Below, one piece after another: positions 14,411 to 61,852 of a stretch of 64,000 nucleotides of DNA (position 1 is its first letter; each line of letters begins with the position of its first letter). The stretch is from a virus, in IMG/VR virus record IMGVR_UViG_3300045988_182948, one strand, 5' to 3'. The notes beneath the pieces are model-generated. The model saw only the letters and a list, made by a program, of their open reading frames with translations, did no database searches and had not been told where the DNA came from. A program made the position numbers and the translations under genes.

Positions 14411-15256
14411 TCAATTAACATTTACAAACTCGTTAAATACTTTTATCCCCTCTTCATTTCCTAGATGATTTTTCAAACAGTCAAGCAGGTCCATTTTACT
14501 TTGATAAGCTTCAACTACATAATCACTAATAGATAATTTTTCTGCCTTTTCTTTTAACTTCCGACTTGGATACAGTCTTTTATTATTTGAATAATTTTCG
14601 AAACATTTTAGTGCCTTTTTATATTCCTTCAACTTATTTATTTGTTTTCCGTTTATTAAAAATTGAAATTCTCTATTAAATATATCCCATTTCAAATTCA
14701 ATATATCATTACGAATCTCTTCATGTCTAAGTAATATTAACTTATCATAGTTAAGCTGACCTAGTAATTGGCATAGCTCATTCTCATTTCTTATATACAC
14801 TAGCATGTCCAAATCTATAAATTTTTCCAATCTCTTTATTAAGAGTGGTTCTTTTTGATAATCAGTAAGTATTTGACTAATTGATACATTAGGTATGCAG
14901 TCAATGTTGATGCTATAATCACCTTTTAATATGTTTATGGCGTCACCATATCCTTTATCTTTTGATACAATATAATACTCTTTGTTTTCTTTATATTTTA
15001 AAACCATCTTTGTTAGCTCAACAACAATACAAAAATCTAGTGAGTTCTTCTTTTGTTTACTGGCTGTATGTGTATAAAGCCCTATATTTCTATGATTCAT
15101 CAATGTATTCACACTATTAAAATCTATTTTTGCATTATTATTGCAAAAATAATAATAGTACGCATTTTTATCAATTGGAAAAGGCAATTCAAAACCTACA
15201 TTTTCACAATCAATAAAATAAACTTTCTTATATTTCTTGAATTTATTATTAAACAT
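14411..15256 (-). CDS. NYN/LabA-like (PIN-fold) domain protein
   Basis: The N-terminal KKVYFIDCENVG and IVSKDKGYGDAINIL resemble NYN-domain signatures. Confidence 0.4.
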   Translation of the reverse strand: MFNNKFKKYKKVYFIDCENVGFELPFPIDKNAYYYYFCNNNAKIDFNSVNTLMNHRNIGLYTHTASKQKKNSLDFCIVVELTKMVLKYKENKEYYIVSKDKGYGDAINILKGDYSINIDCIPNVSISQILTDYQKEPLLIKRLEKFIDLDMLVYIRNENELCQLLGQLNYDKLILLRHEEIRNDILNLKWDIFNREFQFLINGKQINKLKEYKKALKCFENYSNNKRLYPSRKLKEKAEKLSISDYVVEAYQSKMDLLDCLKNHLGNEEGIKVFNEFVNVN

Positions 15257-15967: not shown

Positions 15968-16528
15968 TTATATCTTATTCATATTCTCTAATCTTTTTTG
16001 CAACAGCATAGCAGTATTAATAGCATCATAAGAAGCATGATGTTCAGTCCCCTTAAACTCTCCAAATTCCTTTTCAACAATCTGCATAAGTGATGGCAAC
16101 TGCTGAAAGTTTTCCTGTTCCATGATATAGGATTGAAGGTCAATAAACGTCATCTCATTAAATTCCTTCTCGAATCCATTATCCTTACAGTTCACTCTTA
16201 AAACTGCTGAATCTCTAGGCCCCCATGATACATATAAAGTCTCTAAATTATCCTTATGAATCCATTTCAGGAATTCTTTAAAAACTTCACTAAAATTTAT
16301 TGATGATAGTATTTCATCTCTTGAAACTCCTGTTAAGGACAAGATAGAATTGGAAGGAATGTTATGAGGTTTAATGATTCTTCTGAATTTATCTCCTTCA
16401 ATAATTCTTTCTCCATATCTTGTTGTATATATTTTCTTAGCTGCTAATTCAAATATTTCTGTCTTATTCCTTTCTTTTGAAAATTCTAAATCAATAACGA
16501 TATATTGCCCAGCATAATCATAATTCAT
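15968..16528 (-). CDS. DEDDh 3'-5' exonuclease (DnaQ/epsilon-like)
   Basis: Exo I (YIVIDLEFS), Exo II and Exo III (HHASYDAINTAML) motifs. Confidence 0.7.
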   Translation of the reverse strand: MNYDYAGQYIVIDLEFSKERNKTEIFELAAKKIYTTRYGERIIEGDKFRRIIKPHNIPSNSILSLTGVSRDEILSSINFSEVFKEFLKWIHKDNLETLYVSWGPRDSAVLRVNCKDNGFEKEFNEMTFIDLQSYIMEQENFQQLPSLMQIVEKEFGEFKGTEHHASYDAINTAMLLQKRLENMNKI

Positions 16529-23515: not shown

Positions 23516-24181
23516 TTACTTCATCGAAAAATCTAATATCTTTATCTGATTATCTCTTTCTTTTGTCTTTATATATAAATCAAAATGATAAAACATTTCA
23601 TATAATGAATCTTCCTCATAACAAAATAGGAATTTCTTCTCCTGCAAATCAAGTATGGAATATACCCCTGTACTATTCCCTAAGAAATATTTTAATTCTA
23701 TTTTTCCCATAGTTCCAAATAAAGGATTATAGTTAGCCAAATAACTTAGATAGGGAGTGAAAACAGCAAATTCACAAAAGCCATACTCATCTATCAGAAT
23801 ATCTAAACAAAAAGATTCACCTTGATTCTTGTTTCTTAAAAGAGAAAAGTTATCACTATAATATAAAGAAGCCTTTGCCTTTTCTTTCTCCATTGGTAAA
23901 ACATTCATTTTCTTTAGGCTTTTCAAAATCTTTTTAAAATCATCACCCACTACAAATAGATGCCGAATACTTCCATAATTCAATTGATGGTTTCTTATAA
24001 GAATTTCTTCTTCAATACTTTTCAGGTATGTTTCTAGTTTCAAATCAAATAACCTCCATAAAAAAAGTGTCAGGCTTAGCACGACACTTAAAAGTATAAT
24101 ATCTATATAGAATCTGCTTTGGCTCCTTTCTTTTCTTGATTTGTTTTTTGAATGCTCTTGATAACATCTATTTTTACACAA
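23516..24181 (-). CDS. TM-anchored hypothetical protein (overlaps the upstream NTase gene by 79 nt)
   Basis: Single N-terminal TM helix FYIDIILLSVVLSLTLFLW. 221 aa. Confidence 0.4.
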   Translation of the reverse strand: MCKNRCYQEHSKNKSRKERSQSRFYIDIILLSVVLSLTLFLWRLFDLKLETYLKSIEEEILIRNHQLNYGSIRHLFVVGDDFKKILKSLKKMNVLPMEKEKAKASLYYSDNFSLLRNKNQGESFCLDILIDEYGFCEFAVFTPYLSYLANYNPLFGTMGKIELKYFLGNSTGVYSILDLQEKKFLFCYEEDSLYEMFYHFDLYIKTKERDNQIKILDFSMK

Positions 24182-25005
24182 TCTGAAACATAATCCTCAA
24201 TAAGAGAATTAAGTTTATCCAACGTTATATCATTAACTGTGAGAGAATTATTCTCCAGTAACTTGTTTATTTCACATTCGGCTTTTTTCACATATGTATC
24301 AGCCAAATAAATTGCTTCTGAATACTCTATTGGTGCTGTTTTATATTTCTTAATCTTATTTTTCTCTTTTATTGATAGAAAATCAAGATTCATAAGTGAT
24401 TCAAAGTTTACTTTTCCATCTAATCTAGCAACTTCTGAGACCATTTCAGATAAACGTGCAAGATGATGCAACTGCTTTGGGTTATATTTATAAATATCAA
24501 AAATTTCTTGTCCAGAATCTGTTCTCTTTTCAAGCCCCTTTCTTTTTTCATAAATAAATCCCTGCATTGACTTAACAAATCTTTTTACATCCCGATTTGA
24601 GATATCGTCTCTCATTTCCTTCAAAGATTTTAAAAATAATAAAGTTCTAACACGTTGGTATTCCTTATTTACATAGAAATATGGGGTATATAATAACTCC
24701 AGATATGTTGGATTCATCTTATAAAGAAGATTTCCTAATAATCTAATATCTTTCACTTCAATATGACTCTTATCATTCATGACAAGTTCTTTAGAAATCA
24801 TATTTGGTCTTTCAAGTAAGTCTTTAAGCGTTGGGATAATAAAGCACTTAACATCAAAATCACTGCTATAGTCGTCAGTATATTCGTCAAAACCATAATT
24901 CTGGGAACCTTGTAAACACATAAATGCAACATGATAATCAGTATTTTCTTTAAGCCAGTTCATTTTCTTTTTCATTTCATTTAATACCATTTGTTTTTTT
25001 GCCAT
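24103..25005 (-). CDS. Pol-beta-superfamily nucleotidyltransferase-fold protein
   Basis: GSQNYGFDEYTDDYSSDFDVKCF matches the GS-x(n)-DxD nucleotidyltransferase signature. Confidence 0.5.
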   Translation of the reverse strand: MAKKQMVLNEMKKKMNWLKENTDYHVAFMCLQGSQNYGFDEYTDDYSSDFDVKCFIIPTLKDLLERPNMISKELVMNDKSHIEVKDIRLLGNLLYKMNPTYLELLYTPYFYVNKEYQRVRTLLFLKSLKEMRDDISNRDVKRFVKSMQGFIYEKRKGLEKRTDSGQEIFDIYKYNPKQLHHLARLSEMVSEVARLDGKVNFESLMNLDFLSIKEKNKIKKYKTAPIEYSEAIYLADTYVKKAECEINKLLENNSLTVNDITLDKLNSLIEDYVSDCVKIDVIKSIQKTNQEKKGAKADSI

Positions 25006-27574: not shown

Positions 27575-28141
27575 TTATTTATTCTGAATGAATTGATTAT
27601 CCAGGTACTTTCTTACATTTGTTGCAGACTGCTCTTGAATCTCAATAATTTGGGCACCATTTATATAGGCTATTTCTTTTAGTTCCCTACTGATTCCCGT
27701 ATAATCTGATGCTCCTACTACCAATAATGTATCTCCTTTACCTAGTTGTGAAACCATTTGTATCGCCTTGTTGTAGTTTGGTGCAATATCCCCATAAAGA
27801 ATAGGTTTAGCTACAAGTAATGATGCATTATCTAATTCTTCTTCATCTGGAAGTGTTCCATGTAATTCTAGGGCATCACTTCCAGCATCCTTATGTAAGC
27901 CATCAATATTCATTGTTATAATAGGAATTTTATACTCAGCCAGAGCTATATGAGCATCATTGGGCTTTGCTTCATTCACATTCGCCTTTAATTGTTGGAT
28001 AACTTCATTATATTCATCAGGAAAACTATTGGCATATTCTCTTGTCAGTTTATTTCTCAACTCTTTCTGGTTTTCAAAGGTTGGTATACCGGATTCTTGA
28101 GAAATACCTGCGCCAGTAAATGCTATTATCACCTTTATCAC
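27575..28141 (-). CDS. SIR2-family protein, short form lacking the zinc-ribbon module
   Basis: GAGISQESGIPTF, MNIDGLH and ELHG (catalytic His) motifs. No Cys tetrad. Confidence 0.65.
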   Translation of the reverse strand: MIKVIIAFTGAGISQESGIPTFENQKELRNKLTREYANSFPDEYNEVIQQLKANVNEAKPNDAHIALAEYKIPIITMNIDGLHKDAGSDALELHGTLPDEEELDNASLLVAKPILYGDIAPNYNKAIQMVSQLGKGDTLLVVGASDYTGISRELKEIAYINGAQIIEIQEQSATNVRKYLDNQFIQNK

Positions 28142-33089: not shown

Positions 33090-33150
33090 TGATATTTTCT
33101 ATAGAAATATTAGCATCTCCTACCATCATTCATATCCTATTTCCTCTTAT

Positions 33151-35935: not shown

Positions 35936-36538
35936 TTACTCTTTTAAACTCCTTATAAATACTTTCAGCAATCTTTCATCATATTGAGAAGATTCTTCCA
36001 ATAATCTCTGAATAGCCTCTTGCGTCGTTAGTGTTTGCTTGTAGCATCTTTGAGATGTTAAAGCATCATAACTATCTACAATTGCAACTATTTTTGCTTC
36101 TAAAGGGATAGTATCTCCCTTTAAATTCTGCAAATATCCACTCCCATTATTTCTTTCATGATGATATAAGACAATATTTTGGCAAACGCTTGCAAAATCA
36201 AAATCTTCATCTGTTTTACAGTATTTAAAAAGATTACAGAGATAATATGTTCCATATTGAGTATGATTTTGAATAATCTGATATTCCCTATTTGTTAATG
36301 TTTTCTTTTTTGAAAGAATTTCCAAAGGAATAGCAAGTTTCCCTATATCATGAACAAGAGCCGCCAATTCAACATGAAACTTAAATAAATCAGTTAAGTT
36401 TAACGAAGGGATATCCTTGTCCAATCTCTCAACAAATCTTTTTATATACATTGACACATTTTCTGAATGGTCGTTGAAAAAGTTTTTTTGAGAAGTGACA
36501 AGATGATTAAATTCATCTTCAACAGCTTTTGATATCAT
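35936..36538 (-). CDS. HD-GYP-type HD-domain phosphohydrolase
   Basis: The H...HDIGK metal-binding motif and HHERNNGSGY (GYP variant). Confidence 0.65.
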   Translation of the reverse strand: MISKAVEDEFNHLVTSQKNFFNDHSENVSMYIKRFVERLDKDIPSLNLTDLFKFHVELAALVHDIGKLAIPLEILSKKKTLTNREYQIIQNHTQYGTYYLCNLFKYCKTDEDFDFASVCQNIVLYHHERNNGSGYLQNLKGDTIPLEAKIVAIVDSYDALTSQRCYKQTLTTQEAIQRLLEESSQYDERLLKVFIRSLKE

Positions 36539-37820: not shown

Positions 37821-38188
37821 AATCTTACTCTATAAATGAATATCATTTATAGAGTCTTTTTTATTTCTAATTCACTTAAATCTAAGTATTGAAATATAAA
37901 TATATTGCGAACGTTCCTATGAACCCTAACTCTTCAAGTGTCTAACATAGGCTTTTCCAAGTTTTTCTTCTGTTTCTCAATTGATATGAGTCATTGTCCC
38001 CTATTGCCTTTTACGTCGGTCTCATGTTACTGGCACAACTTCGCAGATACATAAGTTCTTTTGTTATGACTGATTTAAAATTTACCTTCTTTGATTATAT
38101 CTGATAAAGTTATTGTTCTCTTGTATTGTGAAATCACTTATGGGCACAAAATGCCCAGATGTCTTTTCATTATAATAAATTTCTTCTT

Positions 38189-38263
38189 TGGTGTGAAAGA
38201 CGGGAATCGAACCCGTATAGTTGGAGCCACAATCCACCGCACTACCATTGTGCTACAATCACC
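38189..38263 (-). tRNA. tRNA-His (GUG) with G-1; two T:T mismatches in the acceptor stem
   Basis: Manual fold: T-arm ACGGG/TTCGATT/CCCGT, anticodon loop TTGTGGC, encoded CCA. Confidence 0.5.
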
Positions 38264-38316
38264 ATCATTATTTTATAAAGCAACACGCAAAAAGTGAGTG
38301 TTCGTCATAAAATATT

Positions 38317-38391
38317 TGGTACCCAATATAGGAATCGAACCTATAATTGATGGTTCGTAGCCATCTGTTTTATCCATTAGACTAATTGGGT
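38317..38391 (-). tRNA. tRNA-Arg (ACG)
   Basis: Perfect 7-bp acceptor, anticodon loop CTACGAA, encoded CCA. Confidence 0.7.
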
Positions 38392-38399
38392 ATGTTTTT

Positions 38400-38473
38400 T
38401 GGAGGCCTCGACCAGACTTGAACTGGTATAAATAGGGTTGCAGCCTATTGCATAGCCATTCTGCCACGAGGTC
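38400..38473 (-). tRNA. tRNA-Cys (GCA)
   Basis: Anticodon loop CTGCAAC. One A:C mismatch in the acceptor stem. Confidence 0.6.
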
Positions 38474-38517
38474 GCAAATATTTTCTTTTTGTTTTACAAT
38501 ATTTTAACTTTATATTT

Positions 38518-39597
38518 TCATTTAATGACCCATTGAAGTTTTGAATCATCAGTAAAATATAATTCTCCTCCATAATCAGAGCACCAACTTTTGTCCAAAT
38601 TGACTTTTTCTTCATTGTTTTTCAATTCTATTTCATAATCTTGTTTCATCTGAGAAACTAAATTATCTTCTCGTGAAATTGAAATATTACTCTTCAAAGT
38701 TTTGTTTATAATAACATTTCCACTAATAAGACTATCTTTAAATTCATCTATAGTGGCTTTTTTAATGATTTTTTTATATATTTTTTTATTTGCACTTTCA
38801 TAACAACAAATCTGTAATACTTTGCGTATTTGAAAATTAGGCTCATATCTTCCTGCTAAATAAATAATTATTGGGTTTACATAGTTACTAAATGTAAAAA
38901 GTCTTTTTTCTTTATCATCTAATTTTAGAGGAAATAAAATGATATAATCATATTTTTTATTTTCATCTAATTCACATAAAGAAGAACAAGTGTCCTCAAC
39001 TCCATTATAGTTATAGATAATTTCATAATTCAAAAAATAATTATTTATAAGTTTTTTAATATCCTCATACTCTTTTATTTCTTTCAAAGGCTTTGCTTTC
39101 ATTTTCTTTTGATTAAGAACATCAATAATAATATTTATATATTCTTCTGTGACATTTTTATTATTAATAAATATAGGCTCAGATGTAAAATCGGTTGTAC
39201 GATATAACTGAATTGTTTTTTCTCTATATATTTCATTTAAAACGTTAGCTACTTTATCAATATGATTGACATAAATATCCTTTTTCAAGAAAATATTTTC
39301 AATATAAAACTTTAAAACATCTTGCCAATTATTATTAACAAATAAATTTTCCATATCTTCTGGTGATGTAACATAAAAAAGTGTTTTTAACTTATCCATC
39401 AAAATCTCTGATTTTATAAATGAGTCTTTTGTAAACATACTACTTAATTTATTATAATTGTCTATAGTTTCCTCTACATTTTCTCGAAGATGTTTTCCAT
39501 GAAAAGCTTCTTCAAGGTTATTATAATATTTTTCCTTATACAAAAAACCATCTGAATATGTCGGTGACAGATTTAACTCTTTAATATTTGTTATCAT
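38518..39597 (-). CDS. hypothetical protein embedded in the tRNA array (very AT-rich; Lys/Asn/Ile-rich)
   Basis: 359-aa ORF lying between tRNA-Cys and the next tRNA block. Confidence 0.45.
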   Translation of the reverse strand: MITNIKELNLSPTYSDGFLYKEKYYNNLEEAFHGKHLRENVEETIDNYNKLSSMFTKDSFIKSEILMDKLKTLFYVTSPEDMENLFVNNNWQDVLKFYIENIFLKKDIYVNHIDKVANVLNEIYREKTIQLYRTTDFTSEPIFINNKNVTEEYINIIIDVLNQKKMKAKPLKEIKEYEDIKKLINNYFLNYEIIYNYNGVEDTCSSLCELDENKKYDYIILFPLKLDDKEKRLFTFSNYVNPIIIYLAGRYEPNFQIRKVLQICCYESANKKIYKKIIKKATIDEFKDSLISGNVIINKTLKSNISISREDNLVSQMKQDYEIELKNNEEKVNLDKSWCSDYGGELYFTDDSKLQWVIK

Positions 39598-39874
39598 ATA
39601 ACACCTCTCTCGTCCATCTAAAGGCTTTATAGTAGCCTTTTAAAAACTAGTTAAAATAAATCAATACTCCTTAAAAACCCCTGCTGGCATCTGCCATATA
39701 TATTCTGGAGTGCTTTTCAGTATTCTGACTTACCATGCCTATATCAGAAGTTTGATGAACTGAAAAGAATTTTTCGGATAAGGTTTTACATGGATATTTA
39801 TATACCTTATACCTGTAGAGGAAAATTTTAGAATATGTTATCAGCAAAAACAATTTATATCCTAAATAATATTT

Positions 39875-39913
39875 GGTGCTCATAGTAGGATTTGAACCAT
39901 CATATGGGCGTTT
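39875..39913 (-). other. tRNA 3'-half-like fragment (TGG + acceptor + degenerate T-arm)
   Basis: TGGTGCTCATAGTAGGATTTGAACCATCAT. Only the T-loop and acceptor are recognisable. Confidence 0.3.
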
Positions 39914-39989
39914 TGGTAGGAATAATAGGAATCGAACCTATATTGCACGATTATCGGTCGTGAGTACTCACCAGTTGTACGATACTCCT
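39914..39989 (-). tRNA. tRNA-Ile (GAU) with C at position 33
   Basis: Anticodon arm CACGA-CCGATAA-TCGTG. Good acceptor, D-arm and T-arm. Confidence 0.6.
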
Positions 39990-39992
39990 ATA

Positions 39993-40066
39993 TGGTATCC
40001 GTTGGTGGTAATGCTCCACCGTCTTCAACTTGTAAGGATGATGTTCTTCTTTTAAACTAAACGGAT
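39993..40066 (-). tRNA. tRNA-Val (UAC) with an atypical T-loop (AGCATTA)
   Basis: Perfect acceptor and T-stem GGTGG/CCACC. Anticodon loop CTTACAA. Confidence 0.5.
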
Positions 40067-40067
40067 A

Positions 40068-40144
40068 TGGTCTCGATAAAAGGATTTGAACCTTTACAAA
40101 CTCGGTCCCAGGCCGAGTGCACTACCAAATTATGCTATATCGAG
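40068..40144 (-). tRNA. tRNA-Pro (UGG) with C at position 33
   Basis: Anticodon arm CTCGG-CCTGGGA-CCGAG. Perfect acceptor. Confidence 0.6.
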
Positions 40145-40270
40145 AGGAAAGAGAATATCTCTTCCGTATTTATGGTGGACCAGACATAATATGTTTATCT
40201 ATTACTACAATAGACTGGACTCCGAGATACTTCCCAATATCTTATCTTTACCTTATTTCATGAAGGAAAC

Positions 40271-40345
40271 TGGCACCTCTTGAAGGAATCGAACCCACAT
40301 CGTGGAGGTAGAAACTCCATGCTCTATCCATTAAGCTAAAGAGGT
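40271..40345 (-). tRNA. tRNA-Arg (UCU)
   Basis: Anticodon loop TTTCTAC. Perfect acceptor. Confidence 0.65.
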
Positions 40346-40548
40346 AATAATGATAACTACTTATCGCAATAGCCTTAGCATCTGACTCCTTATACAGAAT
40401 ATACTTTCATTTTCTATTCTTTCATGCACTTTCAAATATACTAAGAAAATATATATTTTCGTCAAAGCCAACCTCCTAGCTCGTGACTATCTGCATCCAT
40501 TGCTTATGCAGTTTCCACATGGTTTTATTTAATAAATTATATAATCAT

Positions 40549-40625
40549 TGGTGGACGATATAGGATTCGAACCTATGACCAGTCGGTTATGAGCCGACAG
40601 CTCTGACCATCTGAGCTAAACGTCC
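40549..40625 (-). tRNA. tRNA-Met/Ile2 (CAU)
   Basis: Anticodon arm GTCGG-CTCATAA-CCGAC. Confidence 0.65.
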
Positions 40626-40637
40626 ATATTTTTAAAA

Positions 40638-40716
40638 TGGTGGAAACTTTGGAATTCGAATCCAACTGATTTCCTGTGTGCAAAACAGGTGACCACACCT
40701 AGCAGTCCCAGTTCCC
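40638..40716 (-). tRNA. tRNA-Ala (UGC) with G3:U70
   Basis: Anticodon loop TTTGCAC. Acceptor GGGAACT/AGTTTCC gives the G3:U70 identity pair. Confidence 0.6.
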
Positions 40717-40728
40717 AATAATACATTA

Positions 40729-40816
40729 TGGCGCTGACTATAGGACTCGAACCTATGCTAGATTTACATCTAGTACGGTTTAGCAAACCGCTGCTTTACC
40801 ACTCAGCCAAGTCAGC
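40729..40816 (-). tRNA. tRNA-Ser (GCU), class II
   Basis: Anticodon loop TTGCTAA. Long variable arm CTAGAT-TTAC-ATCTAG. Perfect acceptor. Confidence 0.6.
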
Positions 40817-40824
40817 AAAAATAT

Positions 40825-40911
40825 TGGTACTCCCAATGGGAGTCGAACCCATACGAGCTTTTGCCCACAGAAGTTTAAGTTCTGTATGTCTACCGATTTC
40901 ATCATAGGAGT
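40825..40911 (-). tRNA. tRNA-Leu (UAA), class II
   Basis: Anticodon arm CAGAA-CTTAAAC-TTCTG. Confidence 0.6.
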
Positions 40912-40914
40912 ATT

Positions 40915-40999
40915 TGGTCTTCTCGAAGAGATTTGAACTCTTACGCTATAAAGCACTAGTTTCTAAAACTAGCATGTCTACCTATTCCATCACGAGAAG
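40915..40999 (-). tRNA. tRNA-Leu (UAG), class II
   Basis: Anticodon arm CTAGT-TTTAGAA-ACTAG. Perfect acceptor. Confidence 0.65.
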
Positions 41000-41004
41000 A
41001 TGAT

Positions 41005-41081
41005 TGGTGGTTTCAGATGGACTTGAACCAACGCTACGAGAAGTTTCAGTTATCTGCTCTACCAGATTGAGCTATGAAACC
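41005..41081 (-). tRNA. tRNA-Phe (GAA)
   Basis: D-arm GCTC..GAGC. Anticodon loop CTGAAAC. Perfect acceptor. Confidence 0.7.
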
Positions 41082-41095
41082 AGATGATAAAATAT

Positions 41096-41170
41096 TGGCA
41101 CCTCTGTAAGGAGTCGAACCTTAAGTTTTGGTTTTGGAGACCAATGTGTTCCCTTTTACACTACAGAGAT
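41096..41170 (-). tRNA. tRNA-Trp (CCA)
   Basis: Anticodon arm TTGGT-CTCCAAA-ACCAA. Confidence 0.7.
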
Positions 41171-41172
41171 AT

Positions 41173-41249
41173 TGGCATCAGGGAGAGGGCTCGAACCTCT
41201 AAATGTGGGAGTCAAGGTCCCATGTGCTTACCAGTTTCACCACCCTGAT
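41173..41249 (-). tRNA. tRNA-Gln (UUG) with C at position 33
   Basis: Anticodon arm TGGGA-CCTTGAC-TCCCA. Perfect acceptor. Confidence 0.6.
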
Positions 41250-41363
41250 ATCTAAATAGATTTAGTATACTTGGAAGTGGTTGAACCCTCATACCCTCTA
41301 TTAGAAGTCGAGTGCATTACCAACTTTGCTACAAGTACAATATATAATTATGAAATTTTTTAA

Positions 41364-41450
41364 TGGTGGGCCCCACTGGATTCGAACCAGCAATGTTTCT
41401 AATGTCACAGATTTACAGTCTGCTTCCTTCACCAATTTGGATAGAGACCC
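41364..41450 (-). tRNA. tRNA-Tyr (GUA), class II
   Basis: Anticodon loop CTGTAAA. 3-bp D-stem and long variable region. Acceptor has two G:U pairs. Confidence 0.55.
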
Positions 41451-41457
41451 ATATGTT

Positions 41458-41540
41458 TGGCGCTCAGTGAGGGACTCGAACCCCCAAGTCCTTTCTGACC
41501 AACTGTTTTCAAGACAGCACGACTATGGAATTACCCAATG
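41458..41540 (-). tRNA. degenerate tRNA-like sequence (Ser-UGA-like anticodon arm; acceptor 5' strand and D-arm not foldable)
   Basis: Good TGG, acceptor 3' strand and T-arm (GGGGG/TTCGAGT/CCCTC). Anticodon arm CTGT-CTTGAAA-ACAG. No complementary 5' acceptor was found. Confidence 0.3.
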
Positions 41541-41750
41541 GTTGTTGACAAGAAAGGTCTCCTAAGATGATATAGTCTTAAACTTTATATAAATAAGCGC
41601 ACCATACAGGTGTATCATCTCAGGTTTTTCAAGCCTCAAGGTTTCTGGTCTGCCAATTATCTACTATAAACCTTTTTTCGATTTAATAAATAATCATAAG
41701 ATATAATGTTATTCTATAAAATAACTATCCAACAATGAATACAATATATT

Positions 41751-41825
41751 TGGTATCCGAGGTGGGATTCGAACCCACGATTACCTGATAGAGCGCTAAA
41801 GCGTAAACTGCTTGCCAACTCGGAC
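41751..41825 (-). tRNA. tRNA-like gene, anticodon arm not resolved
   Basis: Perfect acceptor and T-arm (GTGGG/TTCGAAT/CCCAC) with a 40-nt core that did not fold canonically by hand. Confidence 0.35.
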
Positions 41826-41830
41826 ATATT

Positions 41831-41907
41831 TGGCGGACCCTACAGGACTTGAACCTGCGACCCTTCGCTTAACAGGCGAACGCTCTAACCAACTGAGCTA
41901 AAGGTCC
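41831..41907 (-). tRNA. tRNA-Asn (GUU)
   Basis: Anticodon arm TTCGC-CTGTTAA-GCGAA. Canonical D-arm. Confidence 0.7.
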
Positions 41908-41916
41908 ATATAATTT

Positions 41917-41991
41917 TGGAGTGAGTAAAGGGTATCGAACCCTCATCCTCTGCTTGGAAGGCAGATATACTAACCGTTGTACTATACTCAC
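41917..41991 (-). tRNA. tRNA-Gly (UCC)
   Basis: Anticodon arm TCTGC-CTTCCAA-GCAGA. Perfect acceptor. Confidence 0.7.
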
Positions 41992-41998
41992 ATTCATA

Positions 41999-42074
41999 TG
42001 GTGCCATCTGAGAGATTCGAACTCCCAACCAACTGATTACAGGTCAGCTGCACTTCCAGTTGTGCTAAGGTGGC
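41999..42074 (-). tRNA. tRNA-Thr (UGU) with C at position 33
   Basis: Anticodon loop CCTGTAA. D-arm GCAC..GTGC. Confidence 0.55.
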
Positions 42075-42078
42075 AAAT

Positions 42079-42153
42079 TGGCGGAACATAGGAGAATTGA
42101 ACTCCTATCTCTTGATAGACAGTCAAGTATATTTTCCATTATACGAATGCTCC
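42079..42153 (-). tRNA. tRNA-Asp (GUC), position 37 is U
   Basis: Anticodon arm CTTGA-CTGTCTA-TCAAG. Confidence 0.55.
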
Positions 42154-42154
42154 A

Positions 42155-42231
42155 TGGTTGCAGAGGCAGGATTTGAACCTGCGACCTCAGGATAATGAGT
42201 CCTGCGAGCTACCAAACTGCTCTACTCTACG
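42155..42231 (-). tRNA. tRNA-Met (CAU), initiator-like (C1:A72 mismatch)
   Basis: Anticodon arm CAGGA-CTCATTA-TCCTG. Canonical D- and T-arms. 1:72 is unpaired (C/A), as in bacterial tRNA-fMet. Confidence 0.55.
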
Positions 42232-42337
42232 ATATTTCACAAAAGAAAAAGTTCCTCATACGAGAAACAATAAAAAAGAAAATTTAAAATATCTCGTTTA
42301 TTGTTTGTTTTTCACTTCCTTTCGTGATTTTATAATT

Positions 42338-42366
42338 ATTATAACATATAATATAAAATTAGTCAA
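42338..42366 (-). promoter_or_regulatory. perfect sigma-A consensus promoter (TTGACT-17-TATAAT) driving the tRNA array
   Basis: Read on the minus strand it gives TTGACT aattttatattatatgt TATAAT, about 100 nt upstream of the first tRNA. Confidence 0.65.
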
Positions 42367-42428: not shown

Positions 42429-42752
42429 TTAATACTCATAATCAATTAAAAAATCCTTGACTGTGTATTCATTTGATTTTAATCTTTCATCTTCAGCTTT
42501 TTCCATTGCTTTTTGAATTGCTTCCTCAAATGGAATTTCATCATCTGCAATTGCTATCAGGATTTGGTTGATTTTATTATTGTCCTCTAAAATATGTTCA
42601 GCACATGATTGTAATATATAATCATCACTATATCCAAAACTTTCTAATCTTTCTTTAACTTTATTTCTCATACTTACTTTCATTTTTTTTCCTTCTTTCT
42701 TTTTAAATATTTTCTGCATAAGTTTTATATAATTTTTTAAATATAATTCCAT
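42429..42752 (-). CDS. hypothetical protein
   Basis: 107-aa ORF. Confidence 0.4.
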   Translation of the reverse strand: MELYLKNYIKLMQKIFKKKEGKKMKVSMRNKVKERLESFGYSDDYILQSCAEHILEDNNKINQILIAIADDEIPFEEAIQKAMEKAEDERLKSNEYTVKDFLIDYEY

Positions 42753-43087
42753 CCATGAACTTCATTGTTCATAGCATAAACAAGCAACTCAAAAGGAGGA
42801 AGCTGTTCTGTAGCTTCATAATAACGAGAAATTTGTTTTGCCCTTGCTAATAGGACAGTACAAACTTTTGAGCTTCTCGCATTTAAAATTAAAATAATTG
42901 CTCTTGATAATAAAACATGAATCTCGGGACCATTGGGATGCCCTTTATCAACCCAAAAAATATCCACAATATTCTGTTTGTGAATGTTCTCTATTAACAT
43001 TCTGTTTTGTCTTTGTTTCATATGCTTAGATTCTATAAGATTATCTAAGCATATATGAAAGTTTTGATTTTCCTTTATAATCATCAT
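42737..43087 (-). CDS. hypothetical protein
   Basis: 116-aa ORF. Confidence 0.4.
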   Translation of the reverse strand: MMIIKENQNFHICLDNLIESKHMKQRQNRMLIENIHKQNIVDIFWVDKGHPNGPEIHVLLSRAIILILNARSSKVCTVLLARAKQISRYYEATEQLPPFELLVYAMNNEVHGWNYI

Positions 43088-43145
43088 AATTCTGTCCCTC
43101 CTTTTTGAATTGATGAAAATAACTGCAATCTTTCTTGCTAAAAAA

Positions 43146-43349
43146 TCAATTGTATTTTAGATGTAGATACATCAGAGCAAATACTAGCTCTGCAACTAAA
43201 AAAAGACATCCATCTAATGCTGTCTTATCAACTACTCCTAAAAATACTAAAATCATAATTTTTAAATAATTTAAATTTAATAGTGCGAGAACTGGGATAA
43301 TCATGGTTAATATGACATGATTCCACTTAACTCTTTGTAGAAGCTTCAT
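43146..43349 (-). CDS. small membrane protein (2 TM, holin-like size)
   Basis: 67 aa, hydrophobic. Confidence 0.3.
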   Translation of the reverse strand: MKLLQRVKWNHVILTMIIPVLALLNLNYLKIMILVFLGVVDKTALDGCLFLVAELVFALMYLHLKYN

Positions 43350-43557
43350 AATTTCTCCTTTCCAACTTCTAATAATTTACGAATTTTCCCTCCAAAACTC
43401 ATATCAGAATAAATTTATGGAACTCGTATAGATTACACTTATATTATAGCATATTCCTAAATATTATTAATTTTATATAGGTTAAGTCTAAATGTGATTA
43501 AATAAAAAAACTATAACCTATGAAAATATTTCTAAGGTTATAGTTCGTTTAGTTCCT

Positions 43558-45270
43558 TTATTCATCCCACCAGTTATAATTTTTAATGTCATCTTCAATC
43601 TGATGAGAGCTTGAGGATGATTGTTTTTTTATTTGCCTGATTGCTTCACTTTCTTGAATTCCCGGAGAAAACCATGCTGGTTTATCTGAGTTGTTCTTCA
43701 AATCATTAAACAAAAATGTTAGAAAGCAGTTTATTTGATTATCTGGAGTCTTGAAAGAATATCCAGAGGTTTTTATTCTATCAAGAATATTAAGCATAAT
43801 TGAATCAAAGGATGCCTGATGAATAATAAGTTTTTCAAGATTCATTATTAACAAATCCCCTTCTATCATTTTTGCTTCTTTACTCATATAGAATTTCTTA
43901 AAGAGCTTCAGTTTATTGAAGCAGGCATTGAGAAAGTCTTTATCAGTGTTTTCTATAAAGATTGAATTATAAATAGAAGAATTGATTTCATTAATTAAAT
44001 TAATTAATAAAGAATCGTTTTTATTATTTTCAGTATAAGTATTTAAAGTTTTATTAATGTTGATATCTTTTTCGCTATTTTGTTTCTTTCTTTTTGAAGA
44101 AATTGTTTCTTTCATATCTGATGAAATGATGGCTCTTGATGGAGTCTTGATATCTGTCAAATTCTCTGAATTATGGCTCTTTTCAATTTTTTCTTCATCA
44201 TTATAAGTCAAATTCACGAAATTGTGGCTCTCATCTAATATGTCATAATCATCAAATTGTGGCTCACTGAATTCTTTCATGTCTATATCTTCAAGGTATT
44301 GCTTTACAAATTGATATATTTTATCTGGGAAGTTTCTTGTTCCATTTTCCCATTTGGAATATGTCTGTTTATAAAGGCTTAATGAATATTTTTTATTTAT
44401 AGCCTCTACTATCTGTTTTTGGGTTAAGTTATGCTTTAAGCGAAGCTGTTTAACATATGTATAATTTCTTTTATTTTTATTGATAATTAAATCTTCTTTG
44501 AGTTGGTCCATGCGACTCTTTAGATATAGTTTTTTGTTTTTGCTGTCTAAGCTTTCAAATTCTTCAACATTATCTTCAAAGTTGAAAAGTTTTAATAGAT
44601 AGAAACGGGTATCCTGTGAAAATGCTCTATATTCAAATAATAAACCACAGGCTTTTAAAAGATATCTTCCTCTTTTTAATGCTGACTGTCCAAGCCCTAA
44701 TTTCTTTTCCTGAGTTTCAAGAGATTCTTGGAAGTATATTCTTTCTTTGTCATCCACAAAATAATTCATTTGAGATAAACACATTGTATCAAAGTATATA
44801 GAATATTGAAGTTTTGTAGCTAGAGGTAGATTGTTATAAATATCATCAAATAATTCATTTGGAAACCTAAAGAAATTGTAACTATCTAAATCTGTTTCAT
44901 AATAAAACTCATCTGTTTCATCTTTTTTATTATAGTTATATAGATATATCTTATTATTTCCAACGCTTCGCTTATAGTTGATGAGTCCAACCCTCTTTAA
45001 ATCTGCTCTTGCTCGGCAACATGTTGATTCACTAATTTTTAATTTATTCATTATATCAGAATCTGAGTAGATAATATAAGGACCACTGTTATCTTTATAA
45101 GTGGTAATGATATATCTGTTTAAATAGAGAGAATACATAAACTTTGCTGGAACAGAAAGTTTTTTGAATCTATTATCTGAAAATAAGACTTTTGGTATAG
45201 ATAAGAAAGCATCTATTTTTGTTGTATCATTAATATTATAGTATTTAGATTCTTTATCCATAGAAAACAC
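43558..45270 (-). CDS. RepA_N-family replication initiator with an internal XRE-like HTH
   Basis: The N-terminal FLSIPKVLFSDNRFKKLSVPAKFMYSLYLNR...GLINYKR matches the Firmicutes plasmid RepA_N signature. A central HTH is LTQKQIVEAIN. A TATAAT with RBS GGGAGG lies immediately upstream. Confidence 0.6.
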   Translation of the reverse strand: MFSMDKESKYYNINDTTKIDAFLSIPKVLFSDNRFKKLSVPAKFMYSLYLNRYIITTYKDNSGPYIIYSDSDIMNKLKISESTCCRARADLKRVGLINYKRSVGNNKIYLYNYNKKDETDEFYYETDLDSYNFFRFPNELFDDIYNNLPLATKLQYSIYFDTMCLSQMNYFVDDKERIYFQESLETQEKKLGLGQSALKRGRYLLKACGLLFEYRAFSQDTRFYLLKLFNFEDNVEEFESLDSKNKKLYLKSRMDQLKEDLIINKNKRNYTYVKQLRLKHNLTQKQIVEAINKKYSLSLYKQTYSKWENGTRNFPDKIYQFVKQYLEDIDMKEFSEPQFDDYDILDESHNFVNLTYNDEEKIEKSHNSENLTDIKTPSRAIISSDMKETISSKRKKQNSEKDININKTLNTYTENNKNDSLLINLINEINSSIYNSIFIENTDKDFLNACFNKLKLFKKFYMSKEAKMIEGDLLIMNLEKLIIHQASFDSIMLNILDRIKTSGYSFKTPDNQINCFLTFLFNDLKNNSDKPAWFSPGIQESEAIRQIKKQSSSSSHQIEDDIKNYNWWDE

Positions 45271-53037: not shown

Positions 53038-53703
53038 TTATTTTTTATCAATATTTAAGATAGGCAAATCACCATTATAGTCTTTTTTTAGATGTTCAAA
53101 GATTTGATAAAGTGCTTCAACGTCATTAATAGCTCTATGTGCGACATATTCAATACCATATAATTTTCCTAAGTCAGACTGCTGATTTGATGCAACAAGT
53201 CCTTTTTCTTTTAGCTTCATGTTTATTGCCATCTTTAGTGTGTCTAGACTCCTTTCAAATGGAAAGTTAAGTTTGAATCTCTTTGTAGCTACTTTTAACA
53301 TTCTGTTATCAAAACTATTAATATTTTGTCCAACTGCTAGACTTGTTTCTTTGCTGTTGCACCATTCAACAAACTGTTTAACTACATCATATTCTGGTGG
53401 CTTATCACTTAACATCTTATTTGTAATACCAGTAATCTCAACAATTCTTTGAGTAATAAAAATCCCTGGATTACATAGTGCTGAAAATGAGTCAACAATA
53501 GTATTATCTTCAACATAAATAGCTCCAATTTCAATGATATGGTCCTTATTAGTTAAACCTGTTGTCTCTAGGTCATACATGATATAATTGCCAAGCGTTT
53601 TATCTGTGACTTGCTGATAGATGCAAATCGGAAATCGCAGGCATCTTAAATCATTTGATTCATCCAATAGGCAACCACATATTGGACACTTGTTCTGTTT
53701 CAT
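53038..53703 (-). CDS. DEDDh 3'-5' exonuclease with an N-terminal zinc ribbon
   Basis: CPICGC...C at the N-terminus. Exo motifs MYDLETTGL and HRAINDVEAL. Confidence 0.65.
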   Translation of the reverse strand: MKQNKCPICGCLLDESNDLRCLRFPICIYQQVTDKTLGNYIMYDLETTGLTNKDHIIEIGAIYVEDNTIVDSFSALCNPGIFITQRIVEITGITNKMLSDKPPEYDVVKQFVEWCNSKETSLAVGQNINSFDNRMLKVATKRFKLNFPFERSLDTLKMAINMKLKEKGLVASNQQSDLGKLYGIEYVAHRAINDVEALYQIFEHLKKDYNGDLPILNIDKK

Positions 53704-56102: not shown

Positions 56103-57056
56103 ATGGTAGCAATGGGCAAAAACACAAAAGTAATTACACTCTATAATCAAAAAGGAGGCGTTGGTAAAACAACAACAACAATTAATCTCGCTCAAGTTCT
56201 AGGGAGTACCTTTAATAAAAAAGTATTAATTATTGATAATGATGCTCAAAACTCTCTTAGCTTTCTGGCAAATATACAAATAAGAAATAATGGAGCTGTA
56301 GAAGATGAAGATGGATTAAAGACATTAGGGTGGCTGGAACAGATGTTTCAGTTATACGGAGATGTTCCAACAGTTCGAGATATTCAGGAAACAATTATAA
56401 CTCCAACATATCAAAAATCGGAGAGAATTGAAGGAACCATTGAGTGGGATATAGTCGAGAAAAAATTTGCGTTCGATATGATTCCTGGAACTGGAAAAGA
56501 CTTATCTTTGGCTGAATTGATTTTTATCACGCCCAACGATGAACCTTTTATTCTTAAGCCAGAAAATAGAAAATTGGCGCCATATGTCTTGAAAGTTATC
56601 ATTGAGCAAATAAAGAAATACTTTGATTATGATTATATCTTAATTGACTGTCCTCCATCACTAGGTATCTTAAGTATGGGAGCTCTAGTTGCATCAGATT
56701 ATTTAATTATACCAACAACAAGTGATATGCTTTCAACGATAGGGATTCAAACAATTATAGACAATCTTAAGGAATTACACTTATATGTACCAGACTTTAA
56801 TATATTAGGGGTTTTGTTTAATTGCTATTCAGATACAAAATATGATAATGAGTTGATAGAAGATGTAAGAAATTTTGGAGACTCTCAAGGAATATCTGTA
56901 TTTGAAGTGAAAATTCCTAAGAAAAATCAAATGAGAATGGTAAGTTCTGAAGAGATTATAGCAGTTCTCAAAAACGAGAAGGCTTTTAAGAGTTATACTG
57001 AGTCAATTATTGACCTTGCTCAAGAAATTATAAAGAAAAGTGAAGGGGGAGAATAG
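56103..57056 (+). CDS. parA: ParA/Soj-family partition ATPase
   Basis: Deviant Walker [15 protein letters not shown] and IIDCPPSLG. Confidence 0.85.
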
Positions 57057-57058
57057 TT

Positions 57059-58087
57059 ATGCCACCAAAAAAGAAATCGATGAGTGATACGGGAACACAT
57101 AAGGCTTCTTCATCAAGTCTGTTCTCAGCTCTTGGAGATGGAATAGATGTTACTGGTTTTGACCCAGATTCAAAAACAGTGAGTGAAACATCCAGATTTA
57201 GAACCGAATATCTAGAACTATCAAAAATTATAGACAATAAAAGTAACAATTTTAGAGCCTTGGATACATTCTATTTGGAATTGTCAATTGCAAAGGTAGG
57301 GCAACTTCAACCAATTATTCTAGTTCCAGAAGTTGTAGAAGGAAAATCAACTGGGCTCTATGAAATAAAAGTGGGGTCTCGACGTTTTGCTGCATTAAAT
57401 AGGCTACTAGAAAAAGCTTTTAAAAAGAGTAATCAAAAGGACATTGAAAAGTACTCAAAAGCTTTTGCAATTATTCTGCCTTATGGTGCTACTCAAGATG
57501 AAATTGAAACAATTTATCGAGAAACGAATACTACAGCCAGACCATTAACTGTAGAAGAAGTTTTCGCCCATTTTGATGGTATCTTTAAAATAAGTGACAC
57601 AGGTGAATTTGTTCATATTCCAAAAGGTGTCAACAAGTATGAATATGTATCCAAAGAGTTTAAGAGGATGGGATTTGATTTTTCGGCAACAAAAGTCAAA
57701 GAGTACTTAACAATTTATAGTGCATCTGATAAAAGAGTTACAGACTGGTTTGAAGATAAGCTTTTAACACGTCAGCAGGCTGTAGAAGTGTCAAGAATGC
57801 CTTCGGCTATGCAAATATCTGTAATGGATAAGTTTGAGCAGATGACAACTAAGGAAATAAGTGATTATATTAAGACTTACATGCTGGAAAAGAAAACAGA
57901 GAAGCTTACAAAGAAAATGAGAGGAATCGATGCAATTAGCTTTGTAATAAAGAGCAATAAAAATCTGAAACATATTGCAGTAATGGAAAATATCAGATTT
58001 CAATCAGAAGATGAGAAACTTAGTTTCTTAAGTCAGATACAGGAGCTTCAGGACCATTTGAATAAAATTGAAAAGTTATTAAAATAA
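57059..58087 (+). CDS. parB: ParB-like partition protein
   Basis: YEIKVGSRRFAAL corresponds to the ParB GERRxRA box. Lies immediately downstream of parA. Confidence 0.6.
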   Translation: MPPKKKSMSDTGTHKASSSSLFSALGDGIDVTGFDPDSKTVSETSRFRTEYLELSKIIDNKSNNFRALDTFYLELSIAKVGQLQPIILVPEVVEGKSTGLYEIKVGSRRFAALNRLLEKAFKKSNQKDIEKYSKAFAIILPYGATQDEIETIYRETNTTARPLTVEEVFAHFDGIFKISDTGEFVHIPKGVNKYEYVSKEFKRMGFDFSATKVKEYLTIYSASDKRVTDWFEDKLLTRQQAVEVSRMPSAMQISVMDKFEQMTTKEISDYIKTYMLEKKTEKLTKKMRGIDAISFVIKSNKNLKHIAVMENIRFQSEDEKLSFLSQIQELQDHLNKIEKLLK

Positions 58088-61324: not shown

Positions 61325-61852
61325 ATGAAAAAAAGACTTATTTTGGATTTTGATGGAACTCTGGTTGAATTTAAACCAGTTGAGAGATTAGATGAACTAT
61401 TGACTCCTGGATATTTTTCAAAACTATTTGTTTTTGAGAATGTTGTTTTAGCTATTCAGGAATTATACAAAAGGCATCCAGAAATAGATATACTTATAGG
61501 AAGTAAAGTGTTAGATGCACCACATATTCCAAAAGACAAAGATGTAATTATAGATAAGCACTTGCCATTTATAAATAGAGAAAATAGAATCTATATCCCT
61601 TATGATGCTAAAAAAACCGATTATATACAAATTACGTCTTGTGATTATGTTTTGGATGATTTAACAAAAAACCTTGTAGAGGTTGAAGAGAGTGGGGGAC
61701 ATGGTATCAAACTCTTGAATGGAATAAACGCTAATAAAAGAACATGGAAAGGACCAGCTGTACATAAGGATTATCCTTATACGCTTATTGTTGAGCAGCT
61801 AGAAATTTACATGAATTTGAAGGAGAAAGAAAATGAAATGGAAAAAGTATAA
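61325..61852 (+). CDS. 5'(3')-deoxyribonucleotidase-like HAD-fold protein
   Basis: LILDFDGTLVEF (DxDGT nucleophile motif). 175 aa. Confidence 0.5.
   Translation: MKKRLILDFDGTLVEFKPVERLDELLTPGYFSKLFVFENVVLAIQELYKRHPEIDILIGSKVLDAPHIPKDKDVIIDKHLPFINRENRIYIPYDAKKTDYIQITSCDYVLDDLTKNLVEVEESGGHGIKLLNGINANKRTWKGPAVHKDYPYTLIVEQLEIYMNLKEKENEMEKV

Follow-up and report, generated by a model that had tools for sequence, protein, structure and literature searches.

We have analyzed an array of transfer RNA (tRNA) genes carried by a DNA of 64,000 nucleotides from the IMG/VR virus record IMGVR_UViG_3300045988_182948; this whole stretch is called the window below. Between positions 38189 and 42231 its minus strand contains 22 intact tRNA genes for 18 amino acids, and it is virtually certain that these constitute a tRNA array unit on a plasmid. 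The explanation that best accommodates the data, to which we assign a probability of about one half, is that this plasmid array is expressed conditionally and provides a back-up pool of tRNA that is independent of the host.

ARAGORN found 21 tRNA genes, all of them on the minus strand within 38189-42231 and none elsewhere in the window. An independent run of the Rfam tRNA model also gave 21, with scores of 43-71 bits compared with a gathering score of 29 bits. The two lists have 20 genes in common and one private to each, giving the union of 22. The tRNA-Val(UAC) gene was missed by ARAGORN at its default setting and recovered at a relaxed threshold (Rfam, 49 bits), while the atypical tRNA-Ala(UGC) gene was called by ARAGORN and missed by the Rfam model. 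The intact set comprises two Met(CAU), two Arg(UCU), Arg(ACG), Leu(UAG), Leu(UAA), Ser(GCU) and Ile(GAU), together with one each for Asp, Thr, Gly, Asn, Tyr, Gln, Trp, Phe, Ala, Pro, Val, Cys and His. A CCA terminus is encoded in 21 of the 22, the sole exception being the second Arg(UCU) gene. The original prediction, made by eye from the sequence, had put the total at a minimum of 21 and named 21 genes with their anticodons. All of these are real, and ARAGORN returned 21 genes in the region rather than a few low-scoring matches; the gene that had been overlooked is that second Arg(UCU). The features of the region are as follows, in the order in which the minus strand would be transcribed.

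42232-42337, minus: leader of about 100 nt, structured, linking the promoter to the first tRNA gene
42155-42231, minus: tRNA-Met(CAU), initiator type (ARAGORN and Rfam)
42079-42153, minus: tRNA-Asp(GUC), anticodon loop CUGUCUA with U37
41999-42074, minus: tRNA-Thr(UGU), with C33
41917-41991, minus: tRNA-Gly(UCC)
41831-41907, minus: tRNA-Asn(GUU)
41751-41825, minus: degenerate allele of tRNA-Glu (Rfam, 28.9 bits)
41458-41540, minus: tRNA-Ser(UGA), pseudogene truncated at the 5′ end
41364-41450, minus: tRNA-Tyr(GUA)
41265-41338, minus: tRNA-Arg(UCU), no encoded CCA
41173-41249, minus: tRNA-Gln(UUG), with C33
41096-41170, minus: tRNA-Trp(CCA)
41005-41081, minus: tRNA-Phe(GAA)
40915-40999, minus: tRNA-Leu(UAG)
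40825-40911, minus: tRNA-Leu(UAA)
40729-40816, minus: tRNA-Ser(GCU)
40638-40716, minus: tRNA-Ala(UGC), phage type
40549-40625, minus: CAU tRNA, elongator Met or Ile2
40346-40548, minus: spacer of 203 nt holding a promoter-like site (folding z = -1.7)
40271-40345, minus: tRNA-Arg(UCU), followed by a 126-nt spacer that is 82% conserved in the relative L015
40068-40144, minus: tRNA-Pro(UGG), with C33
39993-40066, minus: tRNA-Val(UAC), T-loop AGCAUUA
39914-39989, minus: tRNA-Ile(GAU), with C33
39870-39913, minus: 3′ half of a tRNA (T-arm, 3′ strand of the acceptor stem and CCA), read directly from the sequence
38518-39597, minus: orphan open reading frame (ORF) of 359 amino acids (ORF359), inserted in the array
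38400-38473, minus: tRNA-Cys(GCA)
38317-38391, minus: tRNA-Arg(ACG)
38317-38324, minus: recombination hot spot at the 3′ end of tRNA-Arg(ACG), GGGTACCA, with the palindrome GGTACC
38189-38262, minus: tRNA-His(GUG), with A73
38141-38157, strand not assigned: GC-rich hairpin just past tRNA-His, between the array and convergent genes of 267 and 95 amino acids

A tRNA array unit has been defined as at least 20 genes at a density of two or more per kb (PMC4758250). The present array exceeds both figures, with 22 genes in 4043 bp, i.e., 5.4 per kb with the 1.4-kb ORF insert included, a density far above chance.

The array is a minimal complete decoder design with one tRNA per codon box, and is not a selective set for rare codons. 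U34 is present in all the four-codon boxes and G34 in the two-codon pyrimidine boxes, with ACG and UCU anticodons for Arg and UAA and UAG for Leu. Lys is the most used amino acid of the plasmid genes, at 9.9% of codons, and has no tRNA in the array; no tRNA-Lys gene was found in the window, or in the 10-kb flanks of the close copies. The codon AUA occurs at 25.8 per thousand and is covered only if the second CAU tRNA (40549-40625) is Ile2; this may be either Ile2 or elongator Met.

The anticodon loops are unusual at two positions. The near-universal U33 is replaced by C33 in four of the window tRNAs (Gln, Ile, Pro and Thr), and U37 is found in Asp and in the initiator-type Met, as it is in the intact Glu of sister copies of the array. 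The frequencies in the array are 19% for C33 and 10% for a pyrimidine at position 37, compared with 2.2% and 1.7% respectively in 1130 unique tRNAs from viral loci, an enrichment of about 8-fold. A binomial estimate gives P ~0.001 for the excess of C33. Across the plasmid family C33 ranges from 10 to 29% and pyrimidine-37 from 0 to 19%, and several of the odd loops are common to distant relatives. Nine of the 21 genes found by ARAGORN at its default setting begin with A or C, not G. Taken on sequence, the array tRNAs appear to be of a mobile-element type.

The best promoter-like site of the region is TTGACT-17-TATAAT, at 42366..42338 on the minus strand, which lies after the terminator of the upstream ORF. 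It had been described as a perfect consensus; the match is 11 of 12, with an extended -10 TG. The distant relatives L015, L016, L018 and L019 have a TTGACW-17-TATAAT sequence with the TG at the corresponding site. The promoter is thus real and conserved, and to say that it drives the array, as the original prediction did, is an oversimplification, since a terminator-like hairpin intervenes. In the window the 5′ purine box of the leader, GAAAGGAAGUG, pairs with the U-tract in the minimum-energy fold, for which the free energy is -23.3 kcal/mol with z = -3.7. The terminator-like hairpin is at 42268-42251 and is followed by a T-tract at 42250-42241. From the end of the leader to the first tRNA there are 9 nt. 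Across the lineages the leader is 100-118 nt long, and consists of a purine box GAAAGGAAG(UG), a variable middle section and a canonical hairpin with U-tract, which ends 7-9 nt ahead of the first tRNA in every lineage. This architecture is alike in four divergent lineages, with different internal sequence. Because a conserved terminator-like hairpin stands between the promoter and the first tRNA, the leader is probably an attenuator and the expression of the array probably conditional. Alternatively the leader may serve as an RNase III processing stalk, or as a 5′ stabilizer of the STAB-SD type, whose motif it presumably resembles, or it may be a small RNA gene in its own right. Stabilizers of the STAB-SD kind are known in Bacillus (PMC7509114, PMC5737220).

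The purine box of the leader resembles a Shine-Dalgarno sequence. A leader peptide was considered and rejected, there being no start codon after the box in any lineage. Neither the leader nor the spacers matched an Rfam family. Weak promoter-like sites are present in spacers of 203 and 210 nt; that in the 203-nt spacer, TTGACG-16-TAGTAT at 40465..40438, matches at only 9 of 12 positions, and is a possible internal promoter. At the far end of the array the hairpin at 38141-38157 is probably a terminator. It was scored for the plus strand, and its T-tail on the minus strand is weak.

We favor the view that the array provides a stress-proof, back-up tRNA pool because the design of the decoder set is nearly complete, Lys is missing, the anticodon loops are odd and a terminator lies in the leader; for this function taken by itself our preference is tentative. 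Transcription would start at the strong conserved promoter at 42366-42338, with conditional read-through of the leader hairpin and perhaps some contribution from the weak internal promoters. The polycistronic precursor would then be cut by RNase P and trimmed on the 3′ side to the encoded CCA. The resulting tRNAs would supplement the host set, not replace it, and as a host-independent pool could keep translation going if the tRNAs of the host became limiting or damaged, or came under attack from tRNA-targeting toxins or defense nucleases. The C33 and U37 loops and the absence of tRNA-Lys might then be escape adaptations. Phage tRNAs are known to evade anticodon nucleases by changes in the anticodon loop, and tRNAs in which the cleavage site falls inside the anticodon are ones that phages avoid carrying (PMC10264068, PMC11555353, PMC11464382).

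A number of points weigh against this interpretation. Relaxed selection or AT pressure, instead of escape, could account for the C33 and U37 loops, and tRNA-Lys could lie elsewhere on the plasmid, 64 of about 200 kb having been examined. We know of no tRNA-targeting toxin of the host, and PADLOC found no defense system among the ten window proteins tested. The frequent loss of genes among copies of the array indicates that no single tRNA is strongly needed, and the promoter, leader and terminator could belong to a separate small RNA gene. A more elaborate version would make the array a nuclease-hardened decoder set, in which the C33 and U37 loops and avoidance of Lys sustain translation under tRNA-targeted attack from host toxins, defense systems or competitors, the leader acts as a switch, and recombination at tRNA 3′ ends reshuffles or uncouples the distal Cys, Arg and His genes in the manner of a tRNA shufflon. 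We regard this as rather improbable.

Behind the back-up pool we rank codon supply, or gene dosage, which is a possible if doubtful explanation. Here additional tRNAs for the A- and U-ending codons of the plasmid would speed up the translation of its genes and make it cheaper to carry, as was proposed for the Bifidobacterium breve plasmid pMP7017, whose array is highly transcribed and has been read in this way (PMC10832533). The G+C content at the third codon position of the plasmid genes is 24%, and in most boxes the anticodon is the Watson-Crick match to the top codon (GCA, GGA, CCA, ACA, UCA, UUA, AGA, GAA and CAA), as this explanation would require. However, it predicts a selective subset of tRNAs rather than a near-complete set for 18-19 amino acids, Lys is without a tRNA despite being the most used, and the C33 and U37 loops and leader terminator are left unexplained. 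Moreover, the G+C content of the host is close to the 31% of the plasmid, making a codon mismatch unlikely.

The leader itself provides the basis for another explanation, namely that promoter, leader and terminator together make up a gene of their own for a small RNA of ~90-95 nt, which might serve in plasmid control, and that the tRNAs are expressed by leakage or from weaker internal promoters. In four divergent lineages a canonical hairpin with its U-tract comes ~70-90 nt after a consensus promoter, the leader is folded by pairing of its 5′ end with its 3′ end (at the z value given above), and the spacers contain promoter-like sites. Yet in every lineage just those 7-9 nt separate the end of the terminator from the first tRNA, the first five or six tRNAs have no other good promoter ahead of them, and the leader is without a match in Rfam. 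We think a small RNA gene unlikely. It is in any case compatible with attenuation, and would still allow conditional expression of a back-up pool.

The arrays of related plasmids show that the cloverleaves have been maintained over a considerable divergence of sequence. Relatives in which the replication initiator RepA is 37-47% identical keep the order RNase T-like gene, RepA, and ORFs of 67, ~117 and ~75 amino acids. The array is found ~1.2 kb past repA in L015, L016, L018 and L019, and ~6 kb past repA, after other genes, in L020. There are 16 tRNA genes in L015, 25 in L016 and 10 in L020, including Lys(UUU); up to the end of the contig there are five in L018 and 14 in L019. The closest distant relative, L014 (RepA 54% identical), is outside the comparison of arrays, its contig stopping just past repA, and two more distant RepA homologues, in other gene contexts, have no array. 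Isoacceptors were aligned from the window, the sister copy L003, L015, L016, L019 and L020. For 390 predicted stem pairs we find 174 invariant, 169 with compensatory double changes, 27 with one-sided changes and 29 with any break. The compensatory changes in 169 of the 390 pairs, with few breaks, argue that the cloverleaves are preserved by selection and the genes maintained.

Within the window two tRNA genes have decayed. These are the loci that the original prediction left unresolved, suggesting that they might be Glu or Lys; one is Glu, in degenerate form, and the other is Ser(UGA) and not Lys. The Rfam score for the locus at 41751-41825 is just below the gathering score. Its acceptor stem, T-arm and CCA are intact, and three of five pairs are formed in the anticodon stem (ARAGORN, relaxed threshold). 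In an alignment, a canonical tRNA-Glu(UUC) gene occupies exactly this position in the sister copies L003, L004, L005 and L011. In the degenerate gene CGCUUUAGCGC / CGCTTTAGCGC stands in place of the 5′ half of the anticodon arm, and the loop has a nominal CUA. The same allele is present in L001, L002 and L008 by alignment, and in L006, L012 and L013 at 96% BLAST identity, an isolate assembly being included. The locus at 41458-41540 is tRNA-Ser(UGA) lacking ~20 nt at the 5′ end; all the sister loci have an intact gene of 87 nt, and the truncation corresponds to a deletion of ~63 bp between direct repeats (A/G)TAGTCGTGCTGT. In addition, the best match to the 3′ fragment at 39870-39913 is the 3′ end of the Leu(CAA) gene of L015.

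We considered whether the nominal CUA might make the locus at 41751-41825 an amber suppressor. This is unlikely, given a clearly damaged Glu gene with three of five anticodon-stem pairs and U37. The window genes have ordinary stop codons, with long ORFs under code 11, which also counts against suppression.

Other genes have been lost from close copies. Neither Glu nor one Arg(UCU) was called in L008, L012 and L013, and L010 has lost nine genes, comprising everything from Ser(GCU) to Arg(ACG). Since gene content varies, Glu and Ser(UGA) have decayed and Lys is absent, the array is accessory, and an essential set that is the sole source of its tRNAs is ruled out. The decay in the window copy (two pseudogenes, a fragment, and one tRNA without CCA) and the deletions and inversions by which near-identical plasmids differ might suggest a hitch-hiker, derived from a phage or other element and now decaying without function; but the arrays persist past repA at 37-47% RepA identity, 169 stem pairs are compensatory, promoter and leader are conserved and CCA is encoded in 21 of 22 genes, so that we consider this very unlikely.

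Turning to the replicon, the array begins 1.3 kb downstream of repA (43558-45270, minus strand), whose product is an initiator of the RepA_N family (PF06970, E = 5e-15, 55.6 bits with a cut-off of 30). Three small conserved ORFs of 67, 116 and 107 amino acids lie between repA and the array (region 42429-45270, minus strand); none has a significant Pfam match, even at E values up to 1. ParA and a ParB-like protein are encoded at 56103-58087, and the window also encodes topoisomerase III, an FtsH-like protease, a Y-family polymerase, RecD2 and flotillin. With the RecJ-like DHH proteins listed below, these bear out the earlier description of a replicon with rep, par and repair genes. RepA is 99% identical to proteins annotated in isolate assemblies of Coprobacillus cateniformis (HMPREF9488_03306 and others), and the isolate contigs that bear repA measure 182,565 and 189,856 bp, those from metagenomes up to 206,066 bp. 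Contigs of ~180-206 kb thus recur in C. cateniformis isolates and gut metagenomes, and the replicon is probably extrachromosomal, as had been proposed. From sequence comparison we conclude that it is most probably a low-GC RepA_N/ParAB plasmid of ~180-206 kb of the human gut bacterium C. cateniformis.

No relative was found by megablast of 20 kb in 72,556 plasmid records (PLSDB), nor by an alignment scan for RepA in species-representative genomes, and no description of the plasmid was found in the literature searched. That the replicon might be a phage, a phage-plasmid or an essential chromid, with the array as a phage cluster or the sole source of some tRNAs, is barely credible: large phages typically carry large tRNA sets, and T5-like and many uncultivated phages have the same type of tRNA-Ala, but PHROGs gave no structural or packaging match for ten large or unannotated window ORFs (in 64 kb of ~200 kb), the RepA scan of IMG/VR found no relative, megablast of 20 kb against 50,697 phage records gave only short matches to tRNA-Asn, RepA_N and ParAB are plasmid functions, and a chromid is at odds with the missing Lys and a gene content that varies between strains.

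The close copies of the array differ by two inversions and one deletion, and occur in three arrangements. Arrangement A is that of the window, L003, L005, L008, L009 and L012. In arrangement B (L002, L004, L006) a cassette of the tRNA fragment, ORF359, Cys and Arg(ACG) is inverted. The Cys and Arg(ACG) genes are here turned toward the array promoter, and the encoded CCA is missing from both Ile and Arg(ACG). In arrangement C (L001/L007, L013) a block of 5 kb is inverted, from His through the flotillin gene to a gene of 106 amino acids. All the breakpoints make use of the Arg(ACG) hot spot, which is joined to the 3′ end of Ile, CCTACCA (39914-39920), to the 3′ end of Leu(UAA), or to GGTA at 33121-33124, 5 kb away. 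The deletion in L010 joins the 3′ ends of Leu(UAA) and Arg(ACG). Only 5-8 bp are shared at the junctions, with a core of GGTA/TACC. Because arrangement B occurs with both Glu alleles, we suggest that it arose recurrently or by recombination between lineages.

No long inverted repeats were found at the junctions, and no recombinase domain in the window ORFs scanned. In these two features the inversions do not conform to a switch of the shufflon or invertase type, which has specific inverted repeats at the ends of its segments and an adjacent recombinase gene.

ORF359 together with Cys and Arg(ACG) forms a variable cassette that is inverted, absent or replaced in sister copies; in L011 a different small ORF stands in the place of ORF359. 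The ORF359 protein has no match in Pfam, PHROGs or PADLOC, and only near-identical copies among 5.8 billion proteins. A single-sequence AlphaFold model was uninformative (pLDDT 32). The exact protein occurs in 932 blocks of an assembly collection, where the contigs read were from human gut metagenomes, and a scan of JGI metagenomes gave just one contig of 3.3 kb. Annotated fragments of 94 and 270 amino acids in an isolate lead us to infer a frameshift there. In L015 a gene for PTH2 peptidyl-tRNA hydrolase (L015:16147-16542) lies between Leu(CAA) and Cys, a position that is held in the window by the orphan ORF and the Leu(CAA)-like 3′ fragment.

Plasmid-borne tRNA arrays are already known. Their function is unsettled, the candidates being codon supply, survival of translational stress and anti-defense. 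The closest analogue of the present array is that of pMP7017 (190 kb). Both are on human-gut megaplasmids with ~20 tRNA genes beside the replicase gene, and both tRNA sets have been interpreted as supplementing the host pool; the tRNAs of pMP7017 are reported to be divergent from those of the host (PMC10832533). However, pMP7017 belongs to the Actinomycetota whereas the present element belongs to the Bacillota and is a RepA_N replicon. A transfer-messenger RNA and a manA motif lie between rep and the array in pMP7017, and ARAGORN and Rfam found neither here. The array of pMP7017 covers 12 amino acids compared with 18-19, and its expression has been demonstrated, whereas the array described here is known from its sequence.

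The trn operon of the delta plasmid of Anabaena PCC 7120 (an L-array; PMC8421152) and tRNA array units (PMC4758250) are similarly long, non-periodic, plasmid-borne, horizontally mobile arrays of seemingly extra tRNA genes. For the present array, the gene content that varies between strains, the missing Lys and the phage-type tRNA-Ala give indirect support to horizontal acquisition and to a set that may be additional to that of the host. The Anabaena plasmid-borne array is silent until translation is impaired (PMC8421152). The leader terminator found here would fit such behavior, but the regulatory elements are unrelated, and the distinction between L-arrays and A-arrays has not been drawn for Firmicutes, which also have long chromosomal tRNA operons. 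The clusters of T5-like and other large phages and the arrays of Mycobacterium plasmids (PMC10264068, PMC12803027) share near-complete sets and deviant anticodon loops with our array, and T5-like phages have a tRNA-Ala with the same unusual D-arm. An anti-defense role has been proposed for the Mycobacterium plasmid and phage arrays (PMC12803027, PMC10264068). The present element differs from the phage clusters in being a plasmid, with no virion genes detected in the ORFs scanned, and in its ~8-fold higher frequency of C33 and pyrimidine-37 over the viral tRNAs sampled. The Inocles of oral Streptococcus (PMC12340149) are also large, low-GC (~32%), plasmid-like elements of human-associated Bacillota, with RecD, RecJ and exonuclease repair genes and some tRNAs, and neither they nor our element match reference plasmid collections. 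This likeness is by description only; the host here is Coprobacillus, of the Erysipelotrichaceae type, and the element is about half the size. A tRNA array is not described in the Inocle paper (PMC12340149).

What is new here is an array on an abundant, apparently undescribed megaplasmid of a cultivable bacterium. The host is common in the human gut, and exact proteins of the megaplasmid occur in hundreds of gut metagenomes. The natural variants, in which tRNAs or blocks are lost, inverted or altered in the anticodon, and the conserved promoter-terminator leader provide a practical system in which the function of such arrays could be tested.

The tRNA-Ala(UGC) has G8G9, a D-arm GGGACUGCUAGGUGUGGUC and the G3:U70 identity pair. 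The last is found in the window, L016 and L020 despite other changes in the acceptor stem, and the form is kept with compensatory changes in L016 and L020. BLAST gave 76-80% identity between the window tRNA-Ala and the tRNA-Ala genes annotated in T5-like coliphages and Salmonella phages. The D-arm was used for a scan with the pattern GGGACTGCTNGGNGTGGTC, which gave at least 120 matches in IMG/VR; among the matches listed, at least 72 were tRNA-Ala(UGC) and at least 12 tRNA-Asp(GUC). In species-representative genomes nearly all were chance matches in high-GC coding DNA. The three tRNA-like exceptions among the loci examined were all in clusters of 7-17 tRNA genes, and one of them is in a Solobacterium metagenome-assembled genome. 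A large class of tRNA-Ala genes from phages and mobile arrays, those of T5-like phages included, is distinguished together with some tRNA-Asp genes by G8G9 and the D-arm signature GGGACUGCUNGGNGUGGUC (loci L084, L091, L138 and L142-L261). This T5-type signature may serve as a simple marker of mobile tRNA arrays, the window copy of which is missed by the Rfam tRNA model.

The first CAU tRNA (42155-42231) has an anticodon loop CUCAUUA and an unpaired C1 x A72, both in the window and in L016, confirming the initiator-type end that had been noted in one of the two CAU tRNAs. Its anticodon stem CAGGA/UCCUG has two G:C pairs followed by A31:U39, and so lacks the three G:C pairs typical of initiators; all three are present in the homologue from L016.

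Several enzymes acting on RNA ends are encoded in the window. These are an RlaP RNA-repair nucleotidyltransferase (24103-25005), two RNase T-like exonucleases (15968-16528 and 53038-53703), an HD_5 protein (35936-36538) and two DHH (RecJ-like) phosphoesterases (4193-5152 and 61833-63671); the assignment of 53038-53703 comes from a Pfam match to its counterpart of 221 amino acids in sister loci. These could act in the processing or repair of tRNA. Proteins with PIN7, SocA/Panacea antitoxin and Sir2 domains are encoded at 14411-15256, 2053-2613 and 27575-28141 respectively, and PADLOC did not assign them to a known defense system.

In L011 the tRNA-Trp (L011:14166-14240, at 4x coverage) has the anticodon UCA instead of CCA, and would read UGA and UGG; this could be genuine or an artifact of the assembly. 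The arrays of three relatives open with a tRNA-like gene of 95 nt with the anticodon UAU and an extra arm of 21 nt (L015:12950-13044, L018:12942-13036, L019:12904-12998), such an arm being unusual for a tRNA of Ile. In the window, tRNA-Val(UAC) has its T-loop in place of the usual UUCxAxU. Lastly, tRNA-His (38189-38262) has two U-U mismatches in the acceptor stem and an encoded G-1 opposite A73, departing from the usual bacterial G-1:C73 identity pair, and its homologue in L016 also ends in A73.

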